A DNA stretch of 11,372 nt. It comes from a virus. Taxonomy: Duplodnaviria > Heunggongvirae > Uroviricota > Caudoviricetes. A program made the position numbers and the translations under genes. The DNA lies in IMG/VR virus record IMGVR_UViG_2778261165_000014, positions 1 through 11,372 of that record; one strand, 5' to 3'. The notes beneath the pieces are model-generated. The model worked only from the letters and a program-made list of their open reading frames with translations. It had not been told where the DNA came from and made no database searches. Positions 1 through 11,372 of this stretch are shown here, piece by piece. Position 1 is the stretch's first letter. Each line of letters begins with the position of its first letter.

Positions 1-17
1 GCCAGATATTGAATGGC

Positions 18-425
18 CTACGCCTCCGGCAGTTCAGGCCAGATGACATCCGGCGCGGTGCTGGTATCAGTAGCTGTCACCGCGTCAATGTAATCCAGCA
101 CAGCGTTAAGGCGGGTTGTTTCTGCCTGCGTCAGTTTACGTCCGGCCTGCAATTTCAGCTGAATCAGACTGATGGAAGCCATAGCAGCATCAATCAGATG
201 CTGTTTCATTAATTCAGATGCTGCAACCAATTCATCATGAGTTGGTTGTGCGGGTTCTGCCAGTACAGGCAGTCCGTTACTGTCTGCCGTAATATTCTTT
301 CCTGCCTCCTGACCAGCAATAAGTGCGTCATATACTTCATCACTGATTTCTACTGCGTCACCGGGTATATAAGAGGATATATCGGAGTTATAAAGAGCAA
401 TCGGAGCAGATGTAAAATATTTCAT
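18..425 (-). CDS. Tail fiber assembly chaperone (Tfa-like)
   Basis: Minus-strand ORF immediately downstream of the tail-fiber gene. The C-terminus ends ...DVIWPELPEA, matching my recollection of the conserved Tfa C-terminal motif. Preferred start is the second ATG (425..423), which has GGAGA 5 nt upstream; the ORF-track start at 437 abuts the upstream TAA and has no SD. Confidence 0.7.
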   Translation of the reverse strand: MKYFTSAPIALYNSDISSYIPGDAVEISDEVYDALIAGQEAGKNITADSNGLPVLAEPAQPTHDELVAASELMKQHLIDAAMASISLIQLKLQAGRKLTQAETTRLNAVLDYIDAVTATDTSTAPDVIWPELPEA

Positions 426-437
426 TGTTTTCTCCAT

Positions 438-1181
438 TTACCAGCCAATTGCCAGCCAACACCATGTTGCAGGTGATGATTCACTGCCTGTACTCATATT
501 TTGCCCTATCCATGATGCTGATGTTCTTCCTGGAATATAGAACCGAACATTCGATAAATCCGTAGACGCTGTCGCAAAGTCATGCGCAAAAATCGCAATA
601 CACGCATTTGGAAATGCGGATGGGAAGGTAATAACACCATTTCTTGCTGAGCTGGATATCTGAGATGCCTGAATAATAAACTCCATGTTAACGCCGTTAA
701 TAACTACCGGGATTTTTGCTGTCAACGTATTACCGTTAATGACAAGTGCAGCGGCAGACATTTTTGCCGCTTCCCCCAAACCAAGGTATGAAAGAATATC
801 TTTCCACCCGGTACCATTGCTGTTTGGATCAGATAGATTTCCTTCTGTTGTATTAATGAATATTCTTTCCCCATCGTCCGATATGAGCATCGCCCCAGAC
901 GGATATCCAGAAATCTCCGAAGCAAATTCAGAATCAAAAGTGTTCAGCGCCCCGGTGCTCGACCATCTCCCCAGAGCAGAAAGTTCGTATAAAATTTGGT
1001 TCATATCCTGGCCTTTTGGCGGCAAACCGCCAGCAGATTTCAGGATCATTGTTATTGGAGGGAACCCCTGTTCATACGATGCTGAGTTATCACCTGCAGG
1101 GGTGGTTGGCAATATTGCCACTCTCTGTCCATTAACTCCAAATGGCTTAGGTTGTTTTTTAGGTGAGTCAGAACGATTCAT
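438..1181 (-). CDS. Tail fiber protein (short, 247 aa)
   Basis: ORF sits between a baseplate-associated gene and the Tfa-like chaperone. AGGA lies 7 nt upstream of the ATG at 1181. The protein is Gly/Ser/Thr/Asn-rich, as fibers typically are. Function is inferred from synteny, not from a recognised domain. Confidence 0.6.
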   Translation of the reverse strand: MNRSDSPKKQPKPFGVNGQRVAILPTTPAGDNSASYEQGFPPITMILKSAGGLPPKGQDMNQILYELSALGRWSSTGALNTFDSEFASEISGYPSGAMLISDDGERIFINTTEGNLSDPNSNGTGWKDILSYLGLGEAAKMSAAALVINGNTLTAKIPVVINGVNMEFIIQASQISSSARNGVITFPSAFPNACIAIFAHDFATASTDLSNVRFYIPGRTSASWIGQNMSTGSESSPATWCWLAIGW

Positions 1182-1183
1182 GC

Positions 1184-1822
1184 TTAATTCCTATAAAATG
1201 TGCCGTCATTAAATGGATATGCATCTGTAGCAAAACCAAAGTATGGGCTTACAATTTGTTTGATATTTACCTGAACTCCACTTGGTACAGGAGTCACATC
1301 GTAATTTGTTAAAATCGATTCTTCGTAGGGAGCAAGTGAGAACTCAAAATTTATACCAATGGTCATATCTCTGTAATTGACACAATATGCTCTGCCTCGT
1401 TGATAAAAAAGTATTTTAAGAAATTTATTTATATCAGGAATGGTTGCCACACTGATGTTAGTAAAAGCCTTGCAGAGTATTAATGTTCTGTAAGCATCAT
1501 CCCCAAGCCTGACATTCGTTGTTTCCTGAATGCCGACGTAAAACGGAGAATTATTAAATGGTGCCGGGTAATCAGTACTCCCATCATCTGCTTCGCTAAA
1601 TCCAAATGAATCGCTATCTATTGGCGCAACAATATATCTGCTTATGCCAACAATTTTCCCCCACATATCAAGCCCGAATGTTTCGCAGGTAGTTAAATCC
1701 CATACCTTTTTAATGAATTCCTCTGTGAAATCATCAAGACTCACTGCCTGGTTAAATGTGTCTATGATGGACAATAATTTCTTACTTGCTGAGTATTGGG
1801 TAAGTATTGTGTCTTCCCACAT
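1184..1822 (-). CDS. Baseplate or tail-fiber-associated structural protein (occupies the position of Mu gp48-like proteins)
   Basis: 212-aa ORF tightly packed between the baseplate J-like gene (stop 1833-1835) and the tail fiber gene. Family assignment is positional only. Confidence 0.55.
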   Translation of the reverse strand: MWEDTILTQYSASKKLLSIIDTFNQAVSLDDFTEEFIKKVWDLTTCETFGLDMWGKIVGISRYIVAPIDSDSFGFSEADDGSTDYPAPFNNSPFYVGIQETTNVRLGDDAYRTLILCKAFTNISVATIPDINKFLKILFYQRGRAYCVNYRDMTIGINFEFSLAPYEESILTNYDVTPVPSGVQVNIKQIVSPYFGFATDAYPFNDGTFYRN

Positions 1823-1832
1823 GCCTCACCCC

Positions 1833-3062
1833 TCACGATAGAATTACGGTAATATCTGATTCCTGAATTGTCGGAACCTGGTCGATACCCATTGTTATTG
1901 CTGGCCCATAGGCTGATCCATCAATGGAGACTTCAAGCGATAAAATCCCAACGGTGTCAGGTGATATTGAAATAACCGGAGCATAATACTTACCGGCGTT
2001 AATGGTAGAGCCTATCCTTGCCTTCCCGATCCCCTCATAACCACCATTGAAAACTGATACGATCATGCTTTTCACTTGTGATGTGATATCACTAGGTGGA
2101 TTAAGAGAGCTATCCAGCTCAACGCTAAAATAAACCCTCGTCGGAGTTGCTTTTTGCCACTGCATTACATAGGAAGGGTATGGAGGTAGATAGTTAACAT
2201 TGTCGTAAACCGTGTACGAGGTATCTCCGTTCAGATTTGCTCCAGGGTTGTACGTCTGGAAAATTGACTCCGCTACATCCTCATCAGTTCCACCATACAC
2301 ACAGATGTAAATAGAGTGCGCCACCACAGGGAAGTTAGTAGCTCCCTGATTTACTGTGGCTGCAGTTCTGTTTGACCATACATAGGCATCCAGCACACCA
2401 TTCGTAGCCAGCAAGGCAGATAGTGTCGATGCGTCCTGATTACGGCTATTTCTCGCGACCGACTGCTTGCGACGTGTTTCAAATGCAATACGTGATTCAA
2501 CATCAACGCCAACAACGCCTGGGCTCGCGTTTGTGATCGCATCCCATCCAGATACTGCACGGTAAATCTGATTTAATGCACCTGCTGCACAGGGTATTGG
2601 TCCGGTTGTGTTATTTACAAACTGAACATCAATGCTTCCTGATGCTGGTATTGTTGCGATGTCGATAGACCGGTAAATATATCCATTGGTATCAATGGCT
2701 GTGCTTCCCGCGGGGATTGTCGTTCCGACCTGACCAATGCATGTTGCTGTAACAACTGTCCCCTGAGCAGCGATCCGTTCCATAAAGTAAATCCGGCCAA
2801 TCCCGTCCTGGAATCTGCCAGTTGAGAAGTCAGGGTTAATTTGATTAAACAAACAAAGAAGTTTGTCGTATTCCTGAGCAATAATTTCAGTGTCAGACTG
2901 TGCGATCTGCCCTTGCGGTGAACTCAGTGATTGACTAGCACCACCGCCAAGAGCCGTTGACATGTCTGTAAGTCTTCCCGCCAGCACATCCGCTATGTCG
3001 GGAACTGAAAGACCGTTTTCAGTGATGGTTACATCAGGAACAGCCGTATTTAATATCGTCAT
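1833..3062 (-). CDS. Baseplate J-like protein (gp47/gpJ family)
   Basis: 409-aa ORF. Its start overlaps the upstream gene's stop as ATGA (3062/3059). Size and position after a GP46-like gene and before the fiber genes fit the baseplate J family; the assignment is by recollection of that family, not by search. Confidence 0.7.
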   Translation of the reverse strand: MTILNTAVPDVTITENGLSVPDIADVLAGRLTDMSTALGGGASQSLSSPQGQIAQSDTEIIAQEYDKLLCLFNQINPDFSTGRFQDGIGRIYFMERIAAQGTVVTATCIGQVGTTIPAGSTAIDTNGYIYRSIDIATIPASGSIDVQFVNNTTGPIPCAAGALNQIYRAVSGWDAITNASPGVVGVDVESRIAFETRRKQSVARNSRNQDASTLSALLATNGVLDAYVWSNRTAATVNQGATNFPVVAHSIYICVYGGTDEDVAESIFQTYNPGANLNGDTSYTVYDNVNYLPPYPSYVMQWQKATPTRVYFSVELDSSLNPPSDITSQVKSMIVSVFNGGYEGIGKARIGSTINAGKYYAPVISISPDTVGILSLEVSIDGSAYGPAITMGIDQVPTIQESDITVILS

Positions 3063-3418
3063 AAGGTGGCCTGTGCAATATTACCATTGATATCTGTAAC
3101 GCGGATTGTGCCGCGAGTTGTGCGTGTATTCTTGTCAAAGAAAACTGATGCCAGAGCATCCTCAACAACGGGTAATTTGAGTGCTTCAGCCTGCATTTTC
3201 TGAGCAATAAAACCAGGAGATGGTCGCCTGCCAAGAACTTCTGCCTTCCATGGGATCCCAAGTGTATTGTCGTAATAACACTCTCCTGAAAACACCAGGC
3301 ATGCACTGGCGACATCCTGAGCAACAGAATATGATTCTTCTGCGATCGCCAGATTGCCATTTCCGTCAAGCGTCAAGTCCCACGTAGATGTGTCCAGTTG
3401 CATAGTTCTGTATGTCAT
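3059..3418 (-). CDS. Phage GP46-family baseplate protein (small)
   Basis: 119-aa ORF with N-terminal ...TWDLTLDGNGNLAIAEE..., resembling the D-L-x-L-x-x-D-G-D-L opening I recall for Mu gp46-like proteins. ATGA overlap with the upstream gene at 3415-3418. Confidence 0.6.
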   Translation of the reverse strand: MTYRTMQLDTSTWDLTLDGNGNLAIAEESYSVAQDVASACLVFSGECYYDNTLGIPWKAEVLGRRPSPGFIAQKMQAEALKLPVVEDALASVFFDKNTRTTRGTIRVTDINGNIAQATL

Positions 3419-4107
3419 GTCGGTTTATCCGTTGCATTGGAATTTATTGTTGCCCCACCACTTTGTACACCTGAAACAGAATGTTTGTGATTGTTATAAT
3501 TGTCCCTTAAATTTTTAACAGTAGATGACTGTGAACTTGCGTTATCCTGAATATCACCGCTAACTTTAAGTAAAGGAGTATTCATGTTGACTCCATCAGG
3601 AGCATCAATATTTAACGATGAACATTTAATATTTAGTGGGTTAGGCGTGGTTATGTTTATTGCACCATCAGCAAATTCAATGAATTGAGTAGGTGCAATA
3701 TTTAATACCCCACCAAGATAAATTGCATCAGATTTACTGTGTCGCCTTTTGCTTCCAGGTACTGATTCTTTACGATTTTTTCTTACCAGTGATGTGTCTT
3801 TGTCACATATCGCAATCAGACCAATATCACCCGCCACAGGGTCCATAATTACAGCGCTGTTTCCTCTTTGCAACCGCCATACGGGAAGGTCATATAAAAC
3901 CGAGTTAGAAATCATTTTTCCTGTACGGTCTGTTCTGGTTAGTAAAGGAAGAGCGTCAACAACTAAATCCGGTGCTTTCCCCCTGACTTCCTGAACTCTC
4001 GCTAACTCAATGAAGAAATATCCAGACATCATCATCTCAAAAATATATTCCTGAGATTGAGCCTCACTTACCTGAGCAGGCGTTGGAGTAAATAGTTGCT
4101 TATCCAT
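3415..4107 (-). CDS. Baseplate assembly/spike protein (gpV / Mu gp45-like)
   Basis: The ORF track gives 3415..4200, but that overlaps the upstream gene by 101 nt. The internal ATG at 4107 (MDKQLFTPT...) reduces the overlap to 8 nt and is my preferred start; its SD is weak. Function is inferred from position and size. Confidence 0.55.
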   Translation of the reverse strand: MDKQLFTPTPAQVSEAQSQEYIFEMMMSGYFFIELARVQEVRGKAPDLVVDALPLLTRTDRTGKMISNSVLYDLPVWRLQRGNSAVIMDPVAGDIGLIAICDKDTSLVRKNRKESVPGSKRRHSKSDAIYLGGVLNIAPTQFIEFADGAINITTPNPLNIKCSSLNIDAPDGVNMNTPLLKVSGDIQDNASSQSSTVKNLRDNYNNHKHSVSGVQSGGATINSNATDKPT

Positions 4108-5089
4108 TATTCTGTTGCGCCTCTGCTCTTTGTTCCGCTGTTCTGGCGGCAATACATATTGAGTGCCATGAACCATTTGGCATCCATGATGATAACTCAT
4201 GCCGAACGGAGGTTAACTTATACCTTCCGCTTGCATGTGGTAGTCCTGTTTTGATATCCACATATCTTCCAATGCAAAGGAGAGATGAATATTGCGTCTG
4301 AAACATCAGTCCCCCATTTGAAAATACAGGATATCCAACAAGTCCGTATTCTCTGGATATAAACGGAATTACATCGTCTCTGTTTTTTTCTGAAGGCCAG
4401 AACTCTACTTTTGTCGGTGGCGTAGCTGACATCGCCAGTCCATAATCTGAACAGACCCTATAAAGTTGCTCAAAAACACTTCCTTCAAAATGCGGACTTC
4501 CTGATGTTGTCATCCCTTTTACATTATTAAACACAGCTTCATAACCTGCACTTGCACAAATGGATGAGATGACATCTTCAACACTTTGCGCCCCCTGCGC
4601 TGTAAACGGGCTTGCTGGCATGTTCTGTAAATCAACATTAGAAGAGGCTGTTATCATCAGACTGCTTTCAGGAGCAGAATTCATGTTTGCTATTGATGAA
4701 AGCATCGTGCCGGAGAAAACAAGAGAATCATCAGCAAATACCTCAACATTTAACTTCTGACCTTCCCCAACAATACCATCAGCCTTCCCTGATATATCAG
4801 CAAGTCTTTCAATTCCTAACCCGTAAAGAGATATATCAGCCTGAGCACCTCCACGACCGGTAACAAAGTTCAGGGATACTGTTGACTTAACATTTCTGAT
4901 GGAGATTTTATTGTTTCCATTTTTATCAAATGCTGATGATTCATTCGTGAAGTCAAACCGAAGACTGTGATTTTTATACAAGCTCGTTTTCCTCGATGTA
5001 ATACAGCAAGTAACGGCTACCCAATCCTTCCCATCGCGGGTCCGATTCCCCATCATTATCAATGAAAATAAGGTCTCCCTTAAATCCAA
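4100..5089 (-). CDS. Baseplate hub-like protein (gpD / Mu gp44-like position); start ambiguous
   Basis: 329-aa ORF from the ATG at 5089 overlaps the upstream 100-aa ORF by about 116 nt. An alternative TTG start at 4981..4979 has GAGGA 8 nt upstream and would overlap by only 8 nt. Function is positional inference. Confidence 0.55.
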   Translation of the reverse strand: MDLRETLFSLIMMGNRTRDGKDWVAVTCCITSRKTSLYKNHSLRFDFTNESSAFDKNGNNKISIRNVKSTVSLNFVTGRGGAQADISLYGLGIERLADISGKADGIVGEGQKLNVEVFADDSLVFSGTMLSSIANMNSAPESSLMITASSNVDLQNMPASPFTAQGAQSVEDVISSICASAGYEAVFNNVKGMTTSGSPHFEGSVFEQLYRVCSDYGLAMSATPPTKVEFWPSEKNRDDVIPFISREYGLVGYPVFSNGGLMFQTQYSSLLCIGRYVDIKTGLPHASGRYKLTSVRHELSSWMPNGSWHSICIAARTAEQRAEAQQNNG

Positions 5090-5276
5090 GGTATGAATAT
5101 CTTACCATCTTATTCCCATGCAGACATGGAACGCCCTGCATAATTGGGACTTCATTAACAGTTAAATCCATGTACATAAAACTCTGTCGCTGAACAATTT
5201 TTATATTACATTGCTGACCAGCCAGACTTACCGAAATGGACTGAGATTTGCTGGGAAGAACAGATACTGTAATCAT
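4974..5276 (-). CDS. Hypothetical small tail/baseplate-associated protein (100 aa)
   Basis: ORF whose ATG (5276..5274) overlaps the upstream gene's stop as ATGA, suggesting translational coupling within the late operon. No recognisable motif. Confidence 0.5.
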   Translation of the reverse strand: MITVSVLPSKSQSISVSLAGQQCNIKIVQRQSFMYMDLTVNEVPIMQGVPCLHGNKMVRYSYLGFKGDLIFIDNDGESDPRWEGLGSRYLLYYIEENELV

Positions 5277-6088
5277 GTACTCGCCTTAACTATATTTTTT
5301 GCAATATCTTCCGCTTTTTTTGTTGCGCTGTTTGTGACTTCGAGTATTGGTTTGGATACCGTATCAAGAGCACTCTGAAATTCAGTCTTGATTGTGTCGG
5401 AGATTTTTCCAGTGATTTCGCCAACAGATGACTTCAGTGATGACCATGATTTACTTAGCTCATCGACAGTAGATTCCCTGGCTCCGCCATTGGTTATTTG
5501 CGGATCAACTCCTACATCTCCCTGCGACTTATTGTTATCCGTTGGCTTCTGTTCTGACTGAGATCCGGAGAGGATAACCTCCATTTGCTGAATGACCTCC
5601 TGAAAATCAAGATAAACCGTCAGAAGAGTCACCCCCTTTTGAGAGTTAACTTCGTAATAGTGGTCAACAAGGTCGAAACTCTCCAGAGTTTCCTTCGGCG
5701 TTTCAATATCGTATGTTTTTGCAGAGGACAGCATCGTTTTGATTGTGTTCAGCGTGCTGTTCTGGCTTGTGAATGTGAGATCGAAAATATTCGGGATGTT
5801 GCCGGAAAAACCAGTAAGACCATTTACGATGATTGCACATCTTACTCTGGCGGGTTCTTTAACTTTGTTGATGGACTGGTATTTCCCTTTCTCCACCGGA
5901 GCGTTTGTTATTTGCGCCCTTCCGCTTGGCTGTACGGATGCCATACCACTGAACTCAAGAGCAACCTCGCCAGTTTCCCTGTCACGAATCACATACTGGG
6001 GATGCAGAACGCTGTCGATGATCGAAAGCGGAGAGCCACCACCGATAGCATTGAATATGTCTGCTGTGTTTAAATCGATTATGCCCAT
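5273..6088 (-). CDS. Phage tail/baseplate structural protein (271 aa), first gene after the ant terminator
   Basis: ATG at 6088 with GGAGA 4 nt upstream. Lies immediately downstream of the hairpins that follow ant and upstream of the baseplate genes. Function is positional. Confidence 0.65.
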   Translation of the reverse strand: MGIIDLNTADIFNAIGGGSPLSIIDSVLHPQYVIRDRETGEVALEFSGMASVQPSGRAQITNAPVEKGKYQSINKVKEPARVRCAIIVNGLTGFSGNIPNIFDLTFTSQNSTLNTIKTMLSSAKTYDIETPKETLESFDLVDHYYEVNSQKGVTLLTVYLDFQEVIQQMEVILSGSQSEQKPTDNNKSQGDVGVDPQITNGGARESTVDELSKSWSSLKSSVGEITGKISDTIKTEFQSALDTVSKPILEVTNSATKKAEDIAKNIVKAST

Positions 6089-6098
6089 CTACTCTCCA

Positions 6099-6166
6099 TT
6101 AAACAAAAACCCAGCCGAAGCTGGGTTGTTGCGTTTGTTCTTGACCTGCACTTTTCGTGCAGGTGG
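6099..6166 (-). terminator. Tandem hairpins downstream of ant; the second is an intrinsic-terminator candidate
   Basis: Hairpin 1: acctgcac (6144-6151) pairs with gtgcaggt (6157-6164), 5-nt loop. Hairpin 2: aacccagc (6108-6115) pairs with gctgggtt (6120-6127), loop cgaa. On the minus-strand RNA hairpin 2 is followed by UUUUUGUUUAA (reverse complement of 6099-6109). Confidence 0.5.
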
Positions 6167-7027
6167 TTAAAATGGTTGTAAGCCTTTCAGCCCTGCGGCA
6201 TCCTCCAGACTTTTCTTAACGCTTGCAGTTACGGAATAGCAATCTGCAATTCTTCCGCAAAATCTGGTCGCAACCGGAGAGCCAAGCAATCGCAAAGCGG
6301 GTTCCATTTCGTCTCTCCATATTCTGTACATGGCATCAAGATGAATGCACGCCGAGTTCAGGTTATGAACATTCATCCTCCAATCAAAACAACTCATCTC
6401 ATTATGTTTCGACTTGCCGATGAATTCGCCTTCAAGTGGAACTCGAGCTGCAAGTGACAGTGCTTCGGTAAACTGCTCCTCACGGATTTCTTTGTATGAA
6501 CATCCAAAATGAGATTTCAGTGACGACCACATGGTGATCATCGCCTTCGCCTGTTTTTCTTTTGGCAGAGACTGACCGCGACTCATGACAAGTTGTTTAA
6601 TGGCTTCCTGCTGTTCAGTGGTGATTTTACCCGGCAATGCCTTTTTAGCTTTGCGCGGGTTAACCACATGGCCTTTAGTCCAGTACTCGTAGAGCACATC
6701 GTCACACTCTTCCTGATAGTGGATTACATTGTCGCGGATTTCAGGGCGGACTTTGTTAGGGCTGATGGTTTGCAACCAGCCATTCAGTTTACGTAAAGCA
6801 AGGCAAATCATGGTCTGCACGCCGCCAACTGAAGGTATTGCGATTTCCACAATACCTTTAGCAAATCTTTGTTTTAACTTTGTAAACTGTGAAGCCCAAT
6901 CCATACCCATTCCCTCAACGATAGGTTTCATTGGGGTGTACGGTTCGCCGTTGTGATTGACAACATAAAGCTCTGCGCCGTGAAATGGCACGTTGATAGT
7001 AGATACCGCTGTTGCTATACTTTTCAT
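6167..7027 (-). CDS. ant: Antirepressor (Ant-like)
   Basis: 286-aa ORF directly downstream of an Arc-like gene and divergent from an Mnt-like gene, which is the P22 immI arrangement. Size is close to P22 Ant (about 300 aa as I recall). GAGGA lies 9 nt upstream of the ATG at 7027. Confidence 0.75.
   Translation of the reverse strand: MKSIATAVSTINVPFHGAELYVVNHNGEPYTPMKPIVEGMGMDWASQFTKLKQRFAKGIVEIAIPSVGGVQTMICLALRKLNGWLQTISPNKVRPEIRDNVIHYQEECDDVLYEYWTKGHVVNPRKAKKALPGKITTEQQEAIKQLVMSRGQSLPKEKQAKAMITMWSSLKSHFGCSYKEIREEQFTEALSLAARVPLEGEFIGKSKHNEMSCFDWRMNVHNLNSACIHLDAMYRIWRDEMEPALRLLGSPVATRFCGRIADCYSVTASVKKSLEDAAGLKGLQPF
6993..7021 (+). promoter_or_regulatory. Candidate sigma70 promoter for the sar-like antisense RNA (TTGATA-17-TATACT)
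   Basis: -35 TTGATA at 6993-6998, a 17-nt spacer, and -10 TATACT at 7016-7021 on the plus strand, inside the 5' end of ant and pointing toward arc. Confidence 0.5.
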
Positions 7028-7097
7028 GTCAGTTTTTCCTCAATACTTACTGGCGATTTAAGCCCTAGATACTCGCAATATCTGGGGCTTTACTCAT
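7028..7097 (+). ncRNA. sar: Candidate sar-like small antisense RNA (about 70 nt) complementary to the ant ribosome-binding region
   Basis: The predicted start just after the -10 box lies opposite the ant start codon and SD. The plus-strand hairpin agccctagata (7061-7071) / tatctggggct (7079-7089) has an 11-bp stem with one G-U pair and a 7-nt loop, followed by T-rich ttactcattct (7090-7100). Length and position match what I recall of P22 sar (68-69 nt). Confidence 0.5.
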
Positions 7098-7240
7098 TCT
7101 GGACAAACAATCCCGTCCTTAGCTACCGACTCCTTAAGCCTCCTCAACACCTCATTGCTGAATGACCGATCATCCTTTTTCGCTGACTGCTCCAAAGCTT
7201 TTTCGAGCCATTCTGGCATCCTTAACGTTTTTACTTTCAT
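7094..7240 (-). CDS. arc: Arc-like ribbon-helix-helix repressor (48 aa)
   Basis: Not in the ORF track because it is under 60 aa. Manual translation gives MKVKTLRMPEWLEKALEQSAKKDDRSFSNEVLRRLKESVAKDGIVCPE, with AGGAG 5 nt upstream of the ATG at 7240..7238. The LRMPEW and RSFSNEV segments resemble the P22 Arc strand and helix regions as I recall them. Confidence 0.7.
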   Translation of the reverse strand: MKVKTLRMPEWLEKALEQSAKKDDRSFSNEVLRRLKESVAKDGIVCPE

Positions 7241-7253
7241 TTTCGCTCCTTTG

Positions 7254-7270
7254 GTATGCGGTACGCATAC
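7254..7270. promoter_or_regulatory. 17-bp palindromic operator candidate (GTATGCG-gta-CGCATAC) over the predicted start of the arc-ant transcript
   Basis: Perfect 7-bp inverted arms read directly from the sequence. It lies immediately downstream of the predicted -10 of the arc-ant promoter, the geometry expected for an Mnt-type operator. Confidence 0.5.
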
Positions 7271-7299
7271 ATAGTATGTAGGTACGCATTGATAGTCAA
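7271..7299 (-). promoter_or_regulatory. Candidate promoter for arc-ant (Pant-like; TTGACT-17-TACTAT)
   Basis: On the minus strand, -35 TTGACT is the reverse complement of 7294-7299 and -10 TACTAT is the reverse complement of 7271-7276, with a 17-nt spacer. A GGTACGCAT direct repeat (7261-7269 and 7281-7289) and the palindrome ATTGAtagTCAAT (7288-7300) overlap it. Confidence 0.5.
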
Positions 7300-7317
7300 T
7301 AGATACCTACATATCCT
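7289..7317 (+). promoter_or_regulatory. Candidate divergent promoter for the mnt-like gene (TTGATA-17-TATCCT)
   Basis: -35 TTGATA at 7289-7294 overlaps, back to back, the -35 of the arc-ant promoter inside the palindrome. The -10 candidate TATCCT at 7312-7317 is weaker. Confidence 0.3.
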
Positions 7318-7345
7318 GTGGTAAAAAATTATTCAGGATATGCTG

Positions 7346-7588
7346 ATGTCTGAACGCAGGTACAAGAACCCACAAGTTAATCTTCGACTTCCTGTGGAGA
7401 TAAAGGATCGCCTAACCGCGTTAGCTGAGGAGAATGGCAGATCTTTAAATGCAGAAATGGTTGCAGCTCTAAGTGCATGGGCAGGAGAAAATAAACATGT
7501 TCACTCGCTTAGCCTTTCTTCCTTAACCGAAAGATTAATAGCTCTTGAGAGAGAGGTTGCAGCCATTAAGGAAGCAAACATCAAGTAA
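7346..7588 (+). CDS. mnt: Mnt-like ribbon-helix-helix repressor
   Basis: The ORF track starts at 7340; the second ATG at 7346 has AGGA 7 nt upstream. The N-terminus ...PQVNLRLPVEIKDRLTALAEENGRSLNAEMV... shows the Arc/Mnt family pattern, and the C-terminus LTERLIALEREVAAIKEANIK looks like a coiled coil, which Mnt uses to tetramerise. Divergent from arc-ant. Confidence 0.7.
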   Translation: MSERRYKNPQVNLRLPVEIKDRLTALAEENGRSLNAEMVAALSAWAGENKHVHSLSLSSLTERLIALEREVAAIKEANIK

Positions 7589-7611
7589 GAAGACGATATT
7601 ACGAGGTTGCT

Positions 7612-8079
7612 ATGGCATGTCTTAGCAAGGAAGAAAATGAAATCATCAATGTAGAATTTAAAAAAACATCAGCAGATGAGTTGTTGATAATCAAGAAATT
7701 AATTATCGATGTTAAGAACCATAAAGGGCTATACCAAGATGTCGTAAAGCATGGTCAAAACCTGTACAACTCAAAGAATAACATCATTCAAGAAACCGGA
7801 CTTAGCGAAAAGATATCTGGTCGTCTTGCTATGATCCTTTGGTCTATCACTAATCCTGAGGTTGAGGCGGCACGCCGATTAAAGATTAAGATCACTGAGG
7901 CAACGTGGGTGTTTGAGGATTTCCTATGTAAACATCCCAGTCACCGCAATCTCAATGGCAAAAAGTACTCTATTCGTAAAGGAATCAGGATCGGTTTTTT
8001 CAAGCACATCCACCCAGGACAACTTGTAGGGTGTGGATGTTTATCTAGACCCATAATTCCAGGGTTAAAAAACTCTTGA
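7612..8079 (+). CDS. Hypothetical protein (155 aa), unrecognised, in an AT-rich cargo island
   Basis: ATG at 7612, 23 nt after the mnt-like stop, with an SD-like acgagg upstream. Hand count of a 100-nt sample (7612-7711) gives about 29% GC, against about 49% for a sample in the baseplate J gene (2401-2500). The C-terminal region has a Cys/His cluster (C106, H108, H111, H132, H134, C141, C143). Confidence 0.55.
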   Translation: MACLSKEENEIINVEFKKTSADELLIIKKLIIDVKNHKGLYQDVVKHGQNLYNSKNNIIQETGLSEKISGRLAMILWSITNPEVEAARRLKIKITEATWVFEDFLCKHPSHRNLNGKKYSIRKGIRIGFFKHIHPGQLVGCGCLSRPIIPGLKNS

Positions 8080-8088
8080 TAGTAGTAA

Positions 8089-8328
8089 TTAATTTCCATC
8101 AAGGGCAGCAAGCAGCGAAGTGCGCAACTCTTCTTGAGTCATTTTCAACTCTCCGCTCTTTGCTTGCCGGCGAAGATCATCGACCACCATTTTGGTGAAT
8201 TCTGTAGGGGTAATCTCACTCTCGATAGAGACCTCTCTCCCGAGAAGCAATGATATCCCACCCCAAATTAGGCTAAAGGCATTACCAATATTTTTTAACG
8301 ATGGAGTGTAAACGATGGAAAGTTTCAT
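8089..8328 (-). CDS. Possible small protein (up to 79 aa, or about 53 aa from TTG at 8250), antisense to the start of the 116-aa plus-strand ORF; uncertain
   Basis: This is the C-terminal part of the 161-aa minus-strand ORF in the track. It has a hydrophobic stretch (IGNAFSLIWGGISLLLG) followed by a charged tail (...EFTKMVVDDLRRQAKSGELKMTQEELRTSLLAALDGN). The plus strand has no ORF of 60 aa or more across 8080-8314. SDs are weak. Confidence 0.25.
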   Translation of the reverse strand: MKLSIVYTPSLKNIGNAFSLIWGGISLLLGREVSIESEITPTEFTKMVVDDLRRQAKSGELKMTQEELRTSLLAALDGN

Positions 8329-8665
8329 TTTTACCGTCCGACAAGAAGATGTTGAATCATTAAACGAAGCAATGCAAACATGGGGGCTAGAACATAAGCC
8401 ACATGTAACACTAGCATTCGACAGCTCGTCTCCACCAGAGTGGGTGCAAGTAATTGTTAACGGAATAACAAGCCCTGCGGCAATGAATTGTTTATCTGCT
8501 GCAATTGGATATTTCGTCGCCAGAAACAAGGGGAAAAAGCTAGAGATACAAACTAACGACGGGAAAAGATTCATCGCTGAAGGGTTTAATCATCGTGAAA
8601 TAAGCGCCTTACTGAGCGAATGTCAAGATCATATCGTTGTCAATAATGATGACAAGCCCACCTGA
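8315..8665 (+). CDS. Hypothetical protein (116 aa), unrecognised
   Basis: ATG at 8315 with GGAG 8 nt upstream (8303-8306). Same orientation as the mnt-like gene and the neighbouring cargo ORFs. The sequence looks like a soluble protein; no motif recognised. Confidence 0.5.
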   Translation: MESFIFTVRQEDVESLNEAMQTWGLEHKPHVTLAFDSSSPPEWVQVIVNGITSPAAMNCLSAAIGYFVARNKGKKLEIQTNDGKRFIAEGFNHREISALLSECQDHIVVNNDDKPT

Positions 8666-8729
8666 GTAGGCATTGCGTGTTTTTTCTTCATTTAATGGGC
8701 AATTGAAATAACCAATACGGATCTCTAAA

Positions 8730-9131
8730 ATGAACATCTTAAAATCTACCATCTCAATCCTCTTTCTGCTAAGCCCTTCCGTGTGCTTCTCGTCTGGCGG
8801 CCTTACTTCACATCAAGTTTTAGTGGATTGCAACAGAGCTTCATCGTCCTTGGTTAGCTCCTATGAAAAGAACGTTCCATTGCAGGAGTCCAAAAGGATG
8901 GACCTCATACAGACAATATCCCGCGTATGCCAAGGTGCATACCAAAACGCTTACGATGGCATGCAGTATGAGGACATTGAAAGAGAGGTTTTATCAAGCG
9001 CCAAAAAACAAAAGAAAAATCTTCAAGGAGAAAGCAAAAAAAATACCGAGAACAGAACCGGACTAGTTCTTTCCGCCATTCAGGTAGGGTATTACATATA
9101 CCATAATGGCGGTCTTGATAATAAAAAATAA
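8730..9131 (+). CDS. Hypothetical secreted or membrane-associated protein (133 aa) with N-terminal signal peptide
   Basis: The N-terminus MNILKSTISILFLLSPSVCFSSGG has a basic n-region and hydrophobic core typical of a Sec signal. The C-terminal part is Lys-rich and contains a second hydrophobic stretch (GLVLSAIQVGYYIY). Its 3' end converges on the tape-measure gene with a 20-nt gap. Confidence 0.6.
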   Translation: MNILKSTISILFLLSPSVCFSSGGLTSHQVLVDCNRASSSLVSSYEKNVPLQESKRMDLIQTISRVCQGAYQNAYDGMQYEDIEREVLSSAKKQKKNLQGESKKNTENRTGLVLSAIQVGYYIYHNGGLDNKK

Positions 9132-9151
9132 TCGTCATTATGACATGATCG

Positions 9152-10969
9152 TTAAGGTGTTACACCACTAGAAAATGCCGCGTTTGTTGACACCCGGCTA
9201 ACTTGCTGATTGACACTTCTGGTAAGAGCATCAACTGTTGTCGGGTTACTGTTAACAACAACCGTGCCAATAGTTGTACTGCTGCTACGACTGTTGTCAA
9301 TTTTTGATGTTGTCTGGCTTGGTGTTGAAGCGATGCGTTGCTGCTGCTGATAGTAAGCCAGCGTCTCGTTTTCTTTTGCATTAAGAGCTGCGCGAATCTT
9401 TGGTACATATTCTCGCGTTTCTTTCGGCAGGGTGTTCCAGTATTTGGATGATGGTGAATCAAACCCGGTACTGGATATGTATTTTAACTTTTTGTCTACA
9501 TTGCCCATCCCCCAGTTGTAAGCCATCAGCGCATGGTTAACATTGCCTTTATAGTGCTTTAGCAAATCCCTCATGAACCTTTCAGCAGCAGCGCGAGATT
9601 TCACTTCATCAAGACGCTCATCAATCCCATCCCCGACCTTTAACCCGTACGCTATGGCAGTATCCTTCATGAGCTGATACGGACCAACAGCACCTTTCGG
9701 GCTGTAAAGTTTTTTACCACCACTCGATTCCACCTCACGAATGGCATCAAGAAGAGAATCCATGCTTACAGGCTTTACTCCGTCAGGGAGAGGGATATCT
9801 GGCTGAATGTTATTGCCATAAATCTCATCTCCCCTACGCCCAAAATCGGTGTCAAACCCCATGCTGCGCATGGTATCTCCAAGTTCACGCTTAGAGTAAT
9901 CAAACGATCCTTTAGCTGCACCCTCAATGTTTTCCCTGTCATTGTAGAGGTACAAACCATATGCTATTAACCCAGCCAACCATGGAGGAAGGGCACCGCC
10001 TGTAAGTTTGCTTCCTACATATGCTGCTGCCAATAGTTTCAGAGCCTCTTCCGCACCACCAACTGCCTTTGTGAATTGCTTCGTCATATTCCCGGCGTCA
10101 TTGAAAAAGCCAATGATGTCGCCATGATGTTTCTCAATCCAGGAACCAAAAGCCTTCATCCCGTCAATAACGTCTGGAGCGAATGCCATGGCTAAATTTT
10201 GCTTTAATCGGGAAAACTCTGAATCAAGTTGCCCAAGAGTGGCAGCAACCTTCTCCTGCTCTTTTACCTGCTGTGCGGTAATACGGGATTTCTTTGTTTC
10301 TGAATCGACAAGCTGCTTAAGTTCCCCTGATTTTATTTTAGCGGCATCTGTCGGATCGAACCCTGATGCAGCCATCACCTGCATCAGGTTTTCTTGAGAA
10401 TGAGTCTTGCCATAGCGAGAAAACTCAGCAAGAGCCTTGTTTGGGTCGCCGAGCTTATTGATATCTAATCCGGTACGAGCTCCAAGAATCAGCAAATTTT
10501 GGGCAGCGCCAGTAAGCCCTCCCATAACAGTCGGATCGGCAATATTTGCCAAAGCCATTCTGGCATTCCCAGAAGATGAAATGAACGAGTCACCGTTAAG
10601 ACCAGCCTGGCGAAATCCCCGCTGAACACCAAACATCTTATTAACATCAGAGCCGAAAAACTTGGCCTGTTGGCTGGCCCTCACAATTTCGTTGGCAGTA
10701 GATGTAAAAAGTTGCTTGATTCCATACAACCCTGCGCCAATTCCCAAAAATCCAGCGGCTGCTGTTGTCACGTTGCGGAAAGCTGAAACAGCGGTTTTAC
10801 CGAACCTCTCCATTTCCTTCCGCCGTTTTTCAAGTTCCTTTAGCCTTTCCTTCTCAGCCCTGGAAAGATCTTTGTTTAATTTACTAACTTCATCTTTTAC
10901 TTTCCGTTTTCCATTCAGGAATTCATCGGCCTTAATTGTGACCTTGTAGGCCAACTCATTGATAATCAT
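9152..10969 (-). CDS. Tape-measure-like protein with C-terminal SLT lytic transglycosylase domain
   Basis: 605-aa ORF. The N-terminus has a charged coiled-coil-like stretch (KRKVKDEVSKLNKDLSRAEKERLKELEKRRKEMERF) and Gly-rich hydrophobic segments. Around aa 400-515 (nt 9425-9772) it carries family-1 SLT motifs: E-S (E414, codon 9728-9730), GAVGPYQLM, and AYNWG. GGAG lies 5 nt upstream of the ATG at 10969. Confidence 0.7.
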   Translation of the reverse strand: MIINELAYKVTIKADEFLNGKRKVKDEVSKLNKDLSRAEKERLKELEKRRKEMERFGKTAVSAFRNVTTAAAGFLGIGAGLYGIKQLFTSTANEIVRASQQAKFFGSDVNKMFGVQRGFRQAGLNGDSFISSSGNARMALANIADPTVMGGLTGAAQNLLILGARTGLDINKLGDPNKALAEFSRYGKTHSQENLMQVMAASGFDPTDAAKIKSGELKQLVDSETKKSRITAQQVKEQEKVAATLGQLDSEFSRLKQNLAMAFAPDVIDGMKAFGSWIEKHHGDIIGFFNDAGNMTKQFTKAVGGAEEALKLLAAAYVGSKLTGGALPPWLAGLIAYGLYLYNDRENIEGAAKGSFDYSKRELGDTMRSMGFDTDFGRRGDEIYGNNIQPDIPLPDGVKPVSMDSLLDAIREVESSGGKKLYSPKGAVGPYQLMKDTAIAYGLKVGDGIDERLDEVKSRAAAERFMRDLLKHYKGNVNHALMAYNWGMGNVDKKLKYISSTGFDSPSSKYWNTLPKETREYVPKIRAALNAKENETLAYYQQQQRIASTPSQTTSKIDNSRSSSTTIGTVVVNSNPTTVDALTRSVNQQVSRVSTNAAFSSGVTP

Positions 10970-11205
10970 CGCTGCTCCTGATGTTTATTCCAGACCCGCT
11001 TGTTAAATGATTCCACCGAGATAATTTCCAGCAGGTTATACATATCACGAACAGATAACCGTTCCTGCAAATCGGTATAAGTGGCTTTTCCTGAACAGAT
11101 AATGGCGTTCATTGATGGTGTGACGTTTACGGGGCTAACGAGTTTTGCCGGAAGAGTCTCCTCCTCCATGAACGGGTACTTCACTCTCCGGCGATCGTTA
11201 AAAAA
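10966..11205 (-). CDS. -1 frame extension (T-like) of the tail assembly chaperone, predicted to be expressed by programmed frameshifting as a G-T-type fusion
   Basis: This reading frame opens right after a stop at 11206-11208 and runs to 10966, overlapping the tape-measure ATG as ATGA. It has no convincing start or SD of its own (the track's start at 11184 is GTG; the first ATG at 11170 lacks an SD). The slippery heptamer UUUUUUA lies at 11205..11199 on the minus-strand mRNA. Confidence 0.55.
   Translation of the reverse strand, partial: FFNDRRRVKYPFMEEETLPAKLVSPVNVTPSMNAIICSGKATYTDLQERLSVRDMYNLLEIISVESFNKRVWNKHQEQR
11147..11205 (-). other. Programmed -1 ribosomal frameshift signal: slippery heptamer U UUU UUA plus downstream hairpin
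   Basis: On the mRNA the zero-frame codons are GAU UUU UUA (11207..11199). After a 6-nt spacer (ACGAUC), GCCGGAGAG (11192..11184) can pair with CUCUUCCGGC (11156..11147), giving a 9-bp GC-rich stem with one bulged U and a 27-nt loop. Confidence 0.5.
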
Positions 11206-11372
11206 TCAAAATTGACTTTAAATACCTTATCCATTACCTGACGAATGGTTGATACCTCTTCAAAGTCGACAGGCTTCACGGTTCGCACCTGTCTGCTGCC
11301 TTCGTGTGTAATCACAATTTGCACAGTTGACATCAGGCGATCACGAAGTTTTCTGGCGACTTCCGGCGATGC
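11181..11372 (-). CDS. Tail assembly chaperone (G-like), 3' portion; 5' end lies outside the window
   Basis: Open frame from the window edge to TGA at 11183..11181, translated manually as ...ASPEVARKLRDRLMSTVQIVITHEGSRQVRTVKPVDFEEVSTIRQVMDKVFKVNFDFLTIAGE. It sits immediately upstream of the tape-measure gene and contains the slippery site near its 3' end. Confidence 0.55.
   Translation of the reverse strand, partial: ASPEVARKLRDRLMSTVQIVITHEGSRQVRTVKPVDFEEVSTIRQVMDKVFKVNFDFLTIAGE

Follow-up and report, generated by a model that had tools for sequence, protein, structure and literature searches.

A probable P22-type immI cassette of the CUS-3/SEN22 subtype among the late genes of a contractile-tailed Escherichia coli prophage

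Introduction

The secondary immunity (immI) region of phage P22 is annotated (NC_002371) as a divergent arrangement in which mnt, encoding a maintenance repressor of the ribbon-helix-helix (RHH) type, faces arc, encoding a second small RHH repressor that is co-transcribed with the antirepressor gene ant. An antisense RNA, sar, lies over the ant ribosome-binding site and has its promoter (Psar) inside ant, a terminator follows ant, and the region sits in the late operon between gene 16 and the tailspike gene (gene 9), with arc and ant in the late direction and lysogen-expressed cargo downstream of mnt. Late-operon inserts of this kind in P22-like phages are known as 'ant morons' and have an unusually high flux, with ten types described in sixteen genomes (Villafane et al. 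2008, PMC2629481). An ImmI region with Ant, Mnt and Arc like that of P22 was also reported in the genome of phage Edno5 (PMC6372524). Here we describe a locus of the same architecture at positions 6167-7588 of a viral DNA stretch of 11,372 nucleotides (IMG/VR record IMGVR_UViG_2778261165_000014, positions 1 to 11,372). This whole stretch is called the window below, and coordinates refer to it unless another phage, prophage or contig is named. We consider it highly probable that the locus is an intact P22-type immI cassette ('ant moron') of the subtype found in phages CUS-3 and SEN22, for which a P22-like circuit can serve as the working model, and its host is most likely the late operon of a lambdoid Escherichia coli prophage with a Gofduovirus-like contractile tail.

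Results and discussion

Gene content and layout of the cassette

The three open reading frames (ORFs) proposed in an initial annotation of the window were all found at their positions, namely ant at 6167-7027 on the minus strand, an arc-like gene at 7094-7240 on the minus strand and a mnt-like gene at 7340-7588 on the plus strand. When the proteins were compared with Pfam families and, by pairwise BLASTP, with the P22 proteins, the family assignments of that annotation held, as both small proteins belong to the RHH Arc family and the N-terminal domain of P22 antirepressors is present in the large one. The genes also have the order and orientation of NC_002371, and the agreement with P22 immI extends feature by feature over mnt, the predicted Pmnt/Pant, the candidate operators, arc, sar, Psar, ant, the terminator and the next late gene.

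For the 286-amino-acid Ant, the Pfam domain P22_AR_N (PF10547) was matched at residues 12-121 with 149.9 bits (E 3.9e-44, cut-off 30.7), and the Ant families phrog_524 and phrog_245 of the PHROG collection were matched at 1e-74 and 1e-67. The identity with P22 Ant was 40% over 220 amino acids (2e-40), and the homology reaches about residue 213. The central part of the gene (6414-6934, roughly residues 32-205) shares about 88% DNA identity with the ant genes of Stx phages, and a sequence search of the PDB with Ant returned no solved relative. The 48-amino-acid Arc-like protein, whose gene has an AAGGAG Shine-Dalgarno sequence, matched Pfam Arc with 25.1 bits (cut-off 20.4) and P22 Arc with 31% identity (6e-06), and its PDB match to Arc was weak.

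In the Mnt-like protein, an Arc-family RHH domain is joined by a linker to a predicted C-terminal helix. The ATG at 7346, which gives 80 amino acids (7346-7588, plus strand), is a likelier start than that at 7340 (82 amino acids), because it stands 7 nt past a CAGGAT Shine-Dalgarno sequence, is the choice of PGAP in the matching E. coli record and agrees with homologues that begin MSERRYK or MSDRKYK. The protein matched Pfam Arc with 41 bits and P22 Mnt with 44% identity over the RHH core (P22 Mnt residues 5-36, 5e-11), and in the PDB its RHH domain was nearer to Arc (3e-06) than to Mnt (7e-05). The coiled-coil C-terminus ascribed to it in the initial annotation was borne out in part. Residues 57-79 form a helix in a single-sequence AF2 model (pLDDT about 72-84), and the hydrophobic residues of this helix, read from the sequence, follow a heptad-like 3-4-3-4 spacing, but the Mnt tetramerisation domain (Repressor_Mnt, PF11423) had no match in the protein at E<=1 in the Pfam search, while it scores 56.3 bits on the P22-type mnt product of CUS-3. 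The model has a moderate overall pLDDT (71.7) and is that of a monomer, in which the β-ribbon and the oligomer cannot be represented. Owing to the missing PF11423 and the closeness of its RHH domain to Arc in the PDB searches, the protein is Mnt-like in position and architecture and is not an orthologue of P22 Mnt. Chain G of PDB entry 9pio, a recent 79-residue 'Arc family DNA-binding protein', matched residues 5-42 about as well as Arc and Mnt did (E 1.9e-5).

Antisense RNA and terminator

Two parts of the cassette go beyond the initial annotation, namely a sar-like antisense RNA with its Psar-like promoter, and a terminator after ant. The Rfam family RF00262 (sar) was matched at 7028-7094 on the plus strand, filling the 66-nt arc-ant spacer over model positions 1-68 of 68 (28.7 bits, E 0.0066). 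The predicted RNA folds into a 5' hairpin and a 12-bp terminator hairpin, the same two hairpins as P22 sar (minimum free energy -24.3 kcal/mol, z -5.4), and the 5' hairpin is complementary to the ant Shine-Dalgarno sequence and start codon. In an alignment of 14 distinct arc-ant spacers, which comprised those of P22 and the window as well as IMG/VR loci, pairing was kept in 94.5% of the cells, compared with 29-46% when the partners were slid, compensatory changes were seen at 7 of the 17 pairs, and none of 500 shuffles reached the observed covariation score. Several of the pairs are G-U on the antisense strand only, and the structure therefore belongs to the antisense transcript. The same family scores 84.6 bits in CUS-3, whose sar is P22-like, and 29.3 bits in an IMG/VR copy that is nearly identical to that of the window (L024), and the window's element is, judged from its sequence and predicted fold, a diverged but structurally conserved variant.

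In a consensus scan, a Psar-like promoter (TTGATA-17-TATACT, 10/12, with the extended -10 TGcTATACT) was predicted at 6993-7021 on the plus strand, within the first ant codons, and it would initiate at about 7028. The P22 Psar is annotated at the equivalent position (15097-15125 of P22), and CUS-3 has the same Psar sequence as the window. A terminator scan placed an intrinsic terminator at 6108-6127 on the minus strand, with an 8-bp GC-rich stem followed by TTTTGTTT. Another 20 nt separate this terminator from the next late gene (start 6088), and P22 has an annotated ant terminator at the same place. A second hairpin, ACCTGCAC-gaaaa-GTGCAGGT, was read from the sequence at 6144-6164 on the minus strand, 3 nt past the ant stop codon.

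Other Rfam matches in this area were below threshold and were rejected. The rsmX match was spurious, being produced by the 6144-6164 hairpin and the terminator together, and those to mir-2558 and snoRNAs were explained by the two post-ant hairpins or the operator palindrome. In an IMG/VR contig that carries a related ant in another context (L072), the Rfam C4 antisense RNA was matched at 6759-6957 on the minus strand with 77.7 bits, together with a1/b1 targets and isrK, about 3 kb from a sar-positive ant (44.8 bits), so that two different antisense-RNA immunity elements are present on one contig.

Predicted operators and promoters

The spacer between the arc-like and mnt-like genes (7241-7339), which the initial annotation had described as palindrome-rich, is the richest 99 nt of the analysed stretch in inverted repeats; among 1128 windows it ranks within the top 0.2-0.4%, a level that 2000 shuffles never attained. 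A consensus scan predicted Pant at 7271-7299 on the minus strand (TTGACT-17-TACTAT) and Pmnt at 7289-7317 on the plus strand (TTGATA-17-TATCCT), both at 9/12, with transcription expected to begin near 7264 and 7324, respectively. The Pant hexamers are kept across about 45 CUS-3-type loci, and the Pmnt stretch is invariant among CUS-3-type loci. A fully overlapping Pant/Pmnt pair as in P22 was also considered, but its best plus-strand candidate reached only 3/6 and 4/6 by eye, and the back-to-back pair was kept.

Two dyads lie in this spacer. Dyad A (7254-7270, 17 bp, GTATGCG-gta-CGCATAC) is over the predicted Pant start and is the positional analogue of P22 Omnt, and dyad B (7275-7313) has 10-bp outer arms TATGTAGGTA/TACCTACATA and an inner palindrome ATTGAtagTCAAT, which forms both predicted -35 hexamers. 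The dyads are perfect in the window and imperfect in most relatives, and they are conserved across about 45 loci. By position, dyad A looks like Omnt and dyad B like Oarc. A 9-bp perfect inverted repeat, CATATCCTG ... CAGGATATG, was observed at 7310-7318 and 7334-7342 with a 15-nt A/T-rich spacer. Its right arm covers the mnt Shine-Dalgarno sequence and the 7340 ATG, and the repeat would be inside the mnt mRNA only if transcription began upstream of the predicted Pmnt start.

Position in the late operon and relatives

E. coli Z1323CEC0001 carries, between torT and torS, a prophage with 99.9% identity to the window. This prophage has genes for integrase/excisionase, CIII, Kil, CI-like, Cro-like and CII proteins, replication, nin, Q and lysis, followed by the head genes, and a contractile tail module with DUF3383 sheath, tube, chaperones, a 605-amino-acid SLT protein, a Dit-like protein, a Pam3_gp18 plug, baseplate J, DUF2612 and fibre. 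The flanks of the cassette are those named in the initial annotation. Upstream in the late direction is the gene for the 605-amino-acid tape-measure-like protein (9152-10969, minus strand, Pfam SLT 72 bits), and downstream is that for the 271-amino-acid Dit-like tail/baseplate protein (5273-6088, minus strand), followed by the Pam3_gp18 baseplate plug gene (4974-5276) and then by the genes for baseplate J and DUF2612. The junction between the tape-measure-like and Dit-like genes is exactly filled by the cassette together with about 1.5 kb of small ORFs (hereafter cargo). As arc-ant runs in the late direction, a late transcript would have to pass the mnt operon in antisense and continue beyond the ant terminator, which is the same layout as for P22 late transcription between gene 16 and gene 9. 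Since the prophage has a separate CI/Cro/CII region, the second immunity layer proposed initially is a reasonable reading.

Among 50,697 phage records compared at the DNA level, only CUS-3 and SEN22 match this subtype, and the DNA identity of the regulatory part to these two phages is 78-88%. In CUS-3 (P22-like), the DNA from ant to mnt is 88% identical to the window and the operator region is almost base-for-base the same; in SEN22 (P22-like, from Salmonella), the sar-arc-operator-mnt DNA is 82% identical, and ant is interrupted by a transposon. In both phages, the two repressors have the reading strands of the window. CUS-3 differs from the window in an extra 67-amino-acid ORF between arc and sar, a second mnt of the P22 type, a different Ant C-terminus and a podovirus context. 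The 2008 paper on ε34 states that CUS-3 is without arc, whereas an unannotated 46-amino-acid Arc-family ORF (Pfam Arc 33.8 bits) was found in this phage (L003) at 4878-5018 on the minus strand. The 67-amino-acid ORF (4678-4881, minus strand) is Cys-rich, and of the mnt genes at 5124-5381 and 5405-5653 (plus strand), one is of the window type and one is of the P22 type with PF11423.

The distribution of related cassettes was surveyed in the 80 IMG/VR loci with the closest Ant proteins. The gene downstream of ant encodes a P22 gp9-type tailspike N-terminus in 56 loci and the window's 271-amino-acid protein in 4 (L010, L012, L046 and L085), and the remaining 20 loci have other or truncated contexts. 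Copies of the 48-amino-acid Arc with 100% identity are present in many P22-like IMG/VR contigs. The nearest isolated relatives of the tail module, by baseplate J identity, are Vibrio phage IKEMa6-1 (72%) and the Edwardsiella phages Edno5 and GF-2 (66-67%). In the latter two, which are Gofduovirus myoviruses, a Mnt-like RHH gene faces an Arc-like gene and then ant, as in the window (Arc-like repressors and Ant in RefSeq), in the same slot between the lytic tail/tape-measure protein and gp24/gp25. The gp24/gp25 proteins are 66-68% identical to the window's 271-amino-acid and plug proteins (66% between gp24 and the 271-amino-acid protein), and the 605-amino-acid protein shares 33% identity with the 'lytic tail protein' of GF-2. 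In contrast, their Ant is unlike that of the window (21% identity in GF-2, no BLAST match in Edno5), and Arc and Mnt are 36-44% identical to the window's in the RHH part only (34-52 amino acids). The arc and ant genes of GF-2 overlap, so that no sar spacer could fit between them. Thus, the slot and the layout are conserved and the alleles have been exchanged.

The novelty implied in the initial annotation was therefore overstated, as mnt|arc-ant occupies the same slot of the published myoviruses GF-2 and Edno5 and late-operon ant morons had been described. The cassette is not new, its arrangement being already annotated and described in related phages, and the PGAP labels for all three genes are already correct in the E. 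coli record.

Working model and alternatives

The homology of the three proteins, the gene layout, the covarying antisense element, the palindromes, the terminator and the CI, Cro and Q genes elsewhere in the prophage were established directly, and the binding and regulatory steps are taken from P22 by homology, the pairing of repressors with dyads being likewise inferred. In a lysogen, Pmnt would yield the Mnt-like repressor, probably together with the downstream cargo, and this repressor, on a dyad within 7241-7339, would keep Pant off so that no antirepressor is made. On infection, or on loss of the Mnt-like repressor, Pant would fire and produce Arc and Ant. Ant would then bind and inactivate a repressor of the CI type, which may be WP_000762769.1 of the prophage itself or belong to another lambdoid prophage in the same cell, and Arc would afterwards shut Pant. 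The sar RNA, made from the promoter in the 5' end of ant, would pair with the ant ribosome-binding site and block translation, and Q-modified late transcripts would run on through the cassette, past the ant terminator and into the baseplate genes.

Several observations weigh against this reading. First, the P22_AR_C domain (PF10548) had no match in Ant at E<=1 in the Pfam search and the last ~75 residues are unrelated to P22 Ant, so that the target of Ant may differ from that of P22 Ant. The same prophage also has, outside the window, three other antirepressor-like genes (L001 41988-43471 and L089 12966-13589), and this ant may thus be redundant. One of the three encodes an antirepressor with a KilAC domain, another lies in the nin region and encodes a protein with a P22AR C-terminal domain, and the third, near xis/int, belongs to the AntA/AntB family. 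Second, the Mnt-like protein is without PF11423, and its reading strand, QVNLRLP, has Arc-type Q/N/R residues (P22 Arc QFNLRWP; P22 Mnt HFNFRMP). Third, the predicted Pant and Pmnt are back-to-back while those of P22 overlap, so that the circuit logic may differ; the dyad sequences also differ from those of P22. Fourth, the sar score of 28.7 bits is below the Rfam gathering score of 43. Finally, in lysogens of Kapi1, a P22-like E. coli phage whose mnt-arc-ant locus is 'similar but not identical', expression of mnt could not be detected (PMC12922286). The peculiarities of the subtype (no P22_AR_C, a non-Mnt C-terminus, an Arc-type reading head and back-to-back promoters) are common to CUS-3 and SEN22.

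The assignment of repressors to dyads is where an alternative has most to say. When repressors and dyads were compared across the immI variants of the 80 IMG/VR loci, the reverse of the positional pairing was suggested, although not decisively. In such a rewired immI, the Mnt-like protein would bind dyad B over both -35 hexamers and autoregulate, the Arc-like protein would bind dyad A at the Pant start, and the switch would behave unlike that of P22, for example with Mnt not stimulating its own promoter. The Arc-type reading strand of the Mnt-like protein, the absence of PF11423 and the back-to-back promoters are consistent with this arrangement, as is the variant L029, in which the dyad that accompanies a QFNVRMP-type Mnt, AGTAGTAC-G-GTACTAT, resembles the GTAGGTA arms of dyad B. 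This is an argument from motif resemblance, however, and dyad A matches Omnt in position. In addition, the centre-to-centre distance between the dyad B arms is 28 bp, a spacing that is unusual for an RHH dimer of dimers. We therefore hold the rewired pairing to be a serious possibility, though one that we would not adopt at present.

A further alternative concerns what Ant does. It may act in trans on other lambdoid prophages, or in some other way such as the tuning of late read-through into the baseplate genes, and not on the prophage's own repressor. The C-terminus that is not of the P22 type, the other antirepressor-like genes in the prophage and the kinship of the N-terminal two-thirds with Stx-phage ant (~88% at the DNA level) are compatible with this reading, and the text of a review suggests that the ant moron modulates tailspike expression in P22 (PMC2629481). 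However, the full regulatory apparatus, comprising two repressors, sar and the terminator, is conserved, which argues that a potent antirepressor is being tightly controlled. Several lambdoid repressors are targets of P22 Ant itself, and we regard a role away from the prophage's own repressor as unlikely.

It is more improbable still that the cassette has lost its function and is decaying within a defective prophage. Although ant pseudogenes or fragments occupy the same slot of sister prophages (L005, L091 and L095), the ant of SEN22 is transposon-interrupted and one tail protein gene near the prophage end is marked as partial by PGAP, the three ORFs, the Shine-Dalgarno sequences, the promoter hexamers, the perfect dyads, sar and the terminator are all intact in the window. 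The reading of the two RHH proteins as a toxin-antitoxin or partition module, which could be prompted by weak matches to RelB-like, ParD-like, FitA-like and TraY families and by the phrog_795 label, was rejected as very improbable because the cassette holds no toxin or ATPase gene, PADLOC returned nothing, the neighbouring gene is a strong Ant match and phrog_795 is the label on P22 mnt itself.

The Mnt-like protein falls in phrog_795 ('partition protein ATPase'), the PHROG used for P22 mnt, and RefSeq propagates this name onto Mnt-type RHH repressors, including P22 mnt, Edno5 gp21 and SEN22_18. Since the label is attached to P22 mnt itself, it is a misnomer, and it is misleading for DNA-binding proteins of 80-90 amino acids.

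The slot in sister prophages

The tail module is present in only 21 of 5,426 complete E. coli genomes, and among these the slot between the tape-measure-like and Dit-like genes is hypervariable. Its occupants include the window's arc next to another Ant, pseudogenes of ant, RHH pairs of other kinds, and P63C- or Panacea-domain genes without ant, and a Panacea-domain gene is also found in the slots of L004 and L090. In a Klebsiella relative, no insert is present at this junction. In two sister slots (L004 3715-4524 and L094 7378-8019), the mnt position is taken by a CI/LexA-like repressor with HTH_3 and Peptidase_S24 domains, which faces a 57-amino-acid ORF and an Ant with both P22_AR_N and P22_AR_C (P22_AR_C 99.8 bits). 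These prophages resemble the window in the slot, in the P22_AR_N-type Ant and in the small ORF upstream of ant, and they differ in that the guard is not an RHH protein. This suggests a cleavable guard repressor for ant, and a guard of the S24 autocleavable type would imply a different input for de-repression.

Taken together, these observations could mean that the gap between the tape-measure-like and Dit-like genes is a dedicated, fast-evolving 'antirepressor socket' that combines a rewired CUS-3/window circuit with exclusion or defence cargo, a joint reading that we put forward only tentatively. In such a socket, one ant may be served by interchangeable guards (RHH Mnt-like, S24 autocleavable CI/LexA-like or other RHH proteins), which would give different induction inputs. 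The Mnt-like guard, with Arc-type reading residues and a non-Mnt oligomerisation helix, may work on back-to-back promoters, and the co-transcribed cargo, including a 155-amino-acid protein with a MuF-like motif, may provide lysogen-expressed exclusion or defence functions.

Beyond annotation, the importance of the locus is small. With P22-type immI as the preferred reading, the locus indicates that such a cassette, the antisense RNA included, moves as a unit between podovirus and myovirus-tailed lambdoid phages, and that its landing point in the late operon is equivalent in both, where the last internal or tape-measure protein has been passed and the distal tail genes are still to come. For the prophage, a second layer of control on induction, a possible cross-induction of co-resident lambdoid prophages and small lysogen-expressed genes can be predicted. 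The subtype can also be a convenient natural variant for following the evolution of RHH operator specificity and circuit layout, because it has an Arc-type reading head at the Mnt position, a different oligomerisation helix and predicted back-to-back promoters.

Cargo and other features

The cargo ORFs (155, 116 and 133/77 amino acids) lie at 7612-9131 on the plus strand, co-oriented with mnt, and a further small ORF is at 8089-8328 on the minus strand. By analogy with the mnt-orf59a-sieA genes of P22, the cargo probably forms a lysogen-expressed mnt operon. Pfam, PADLOC and NCBIfam gave no assignment for the cargo ORFs, and on the cassette itself PADLOC had no match and NCBIfam gave nothing useful. 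In the comparison with PHROG, the C-terminus of the 155-amino-acid protein (residues 108-153, ...HPGQLVGCGC...) matched phrog_324, a MuF/SPP1-gp7-like head morphogenesis family, at 5e-9, and the 116-amino-acid protein matched phrog_12509. The N-terminus of the 133-amino-acid ORF is signal-peptide-like. The second most palindromic spot of the window is within the tape-measure-like gene, where a 13-nt inverted repeat, AACCCTGATGCAG / CTGCATCAGGTTT, with a 7-nt loop was observed at 10359-10391.

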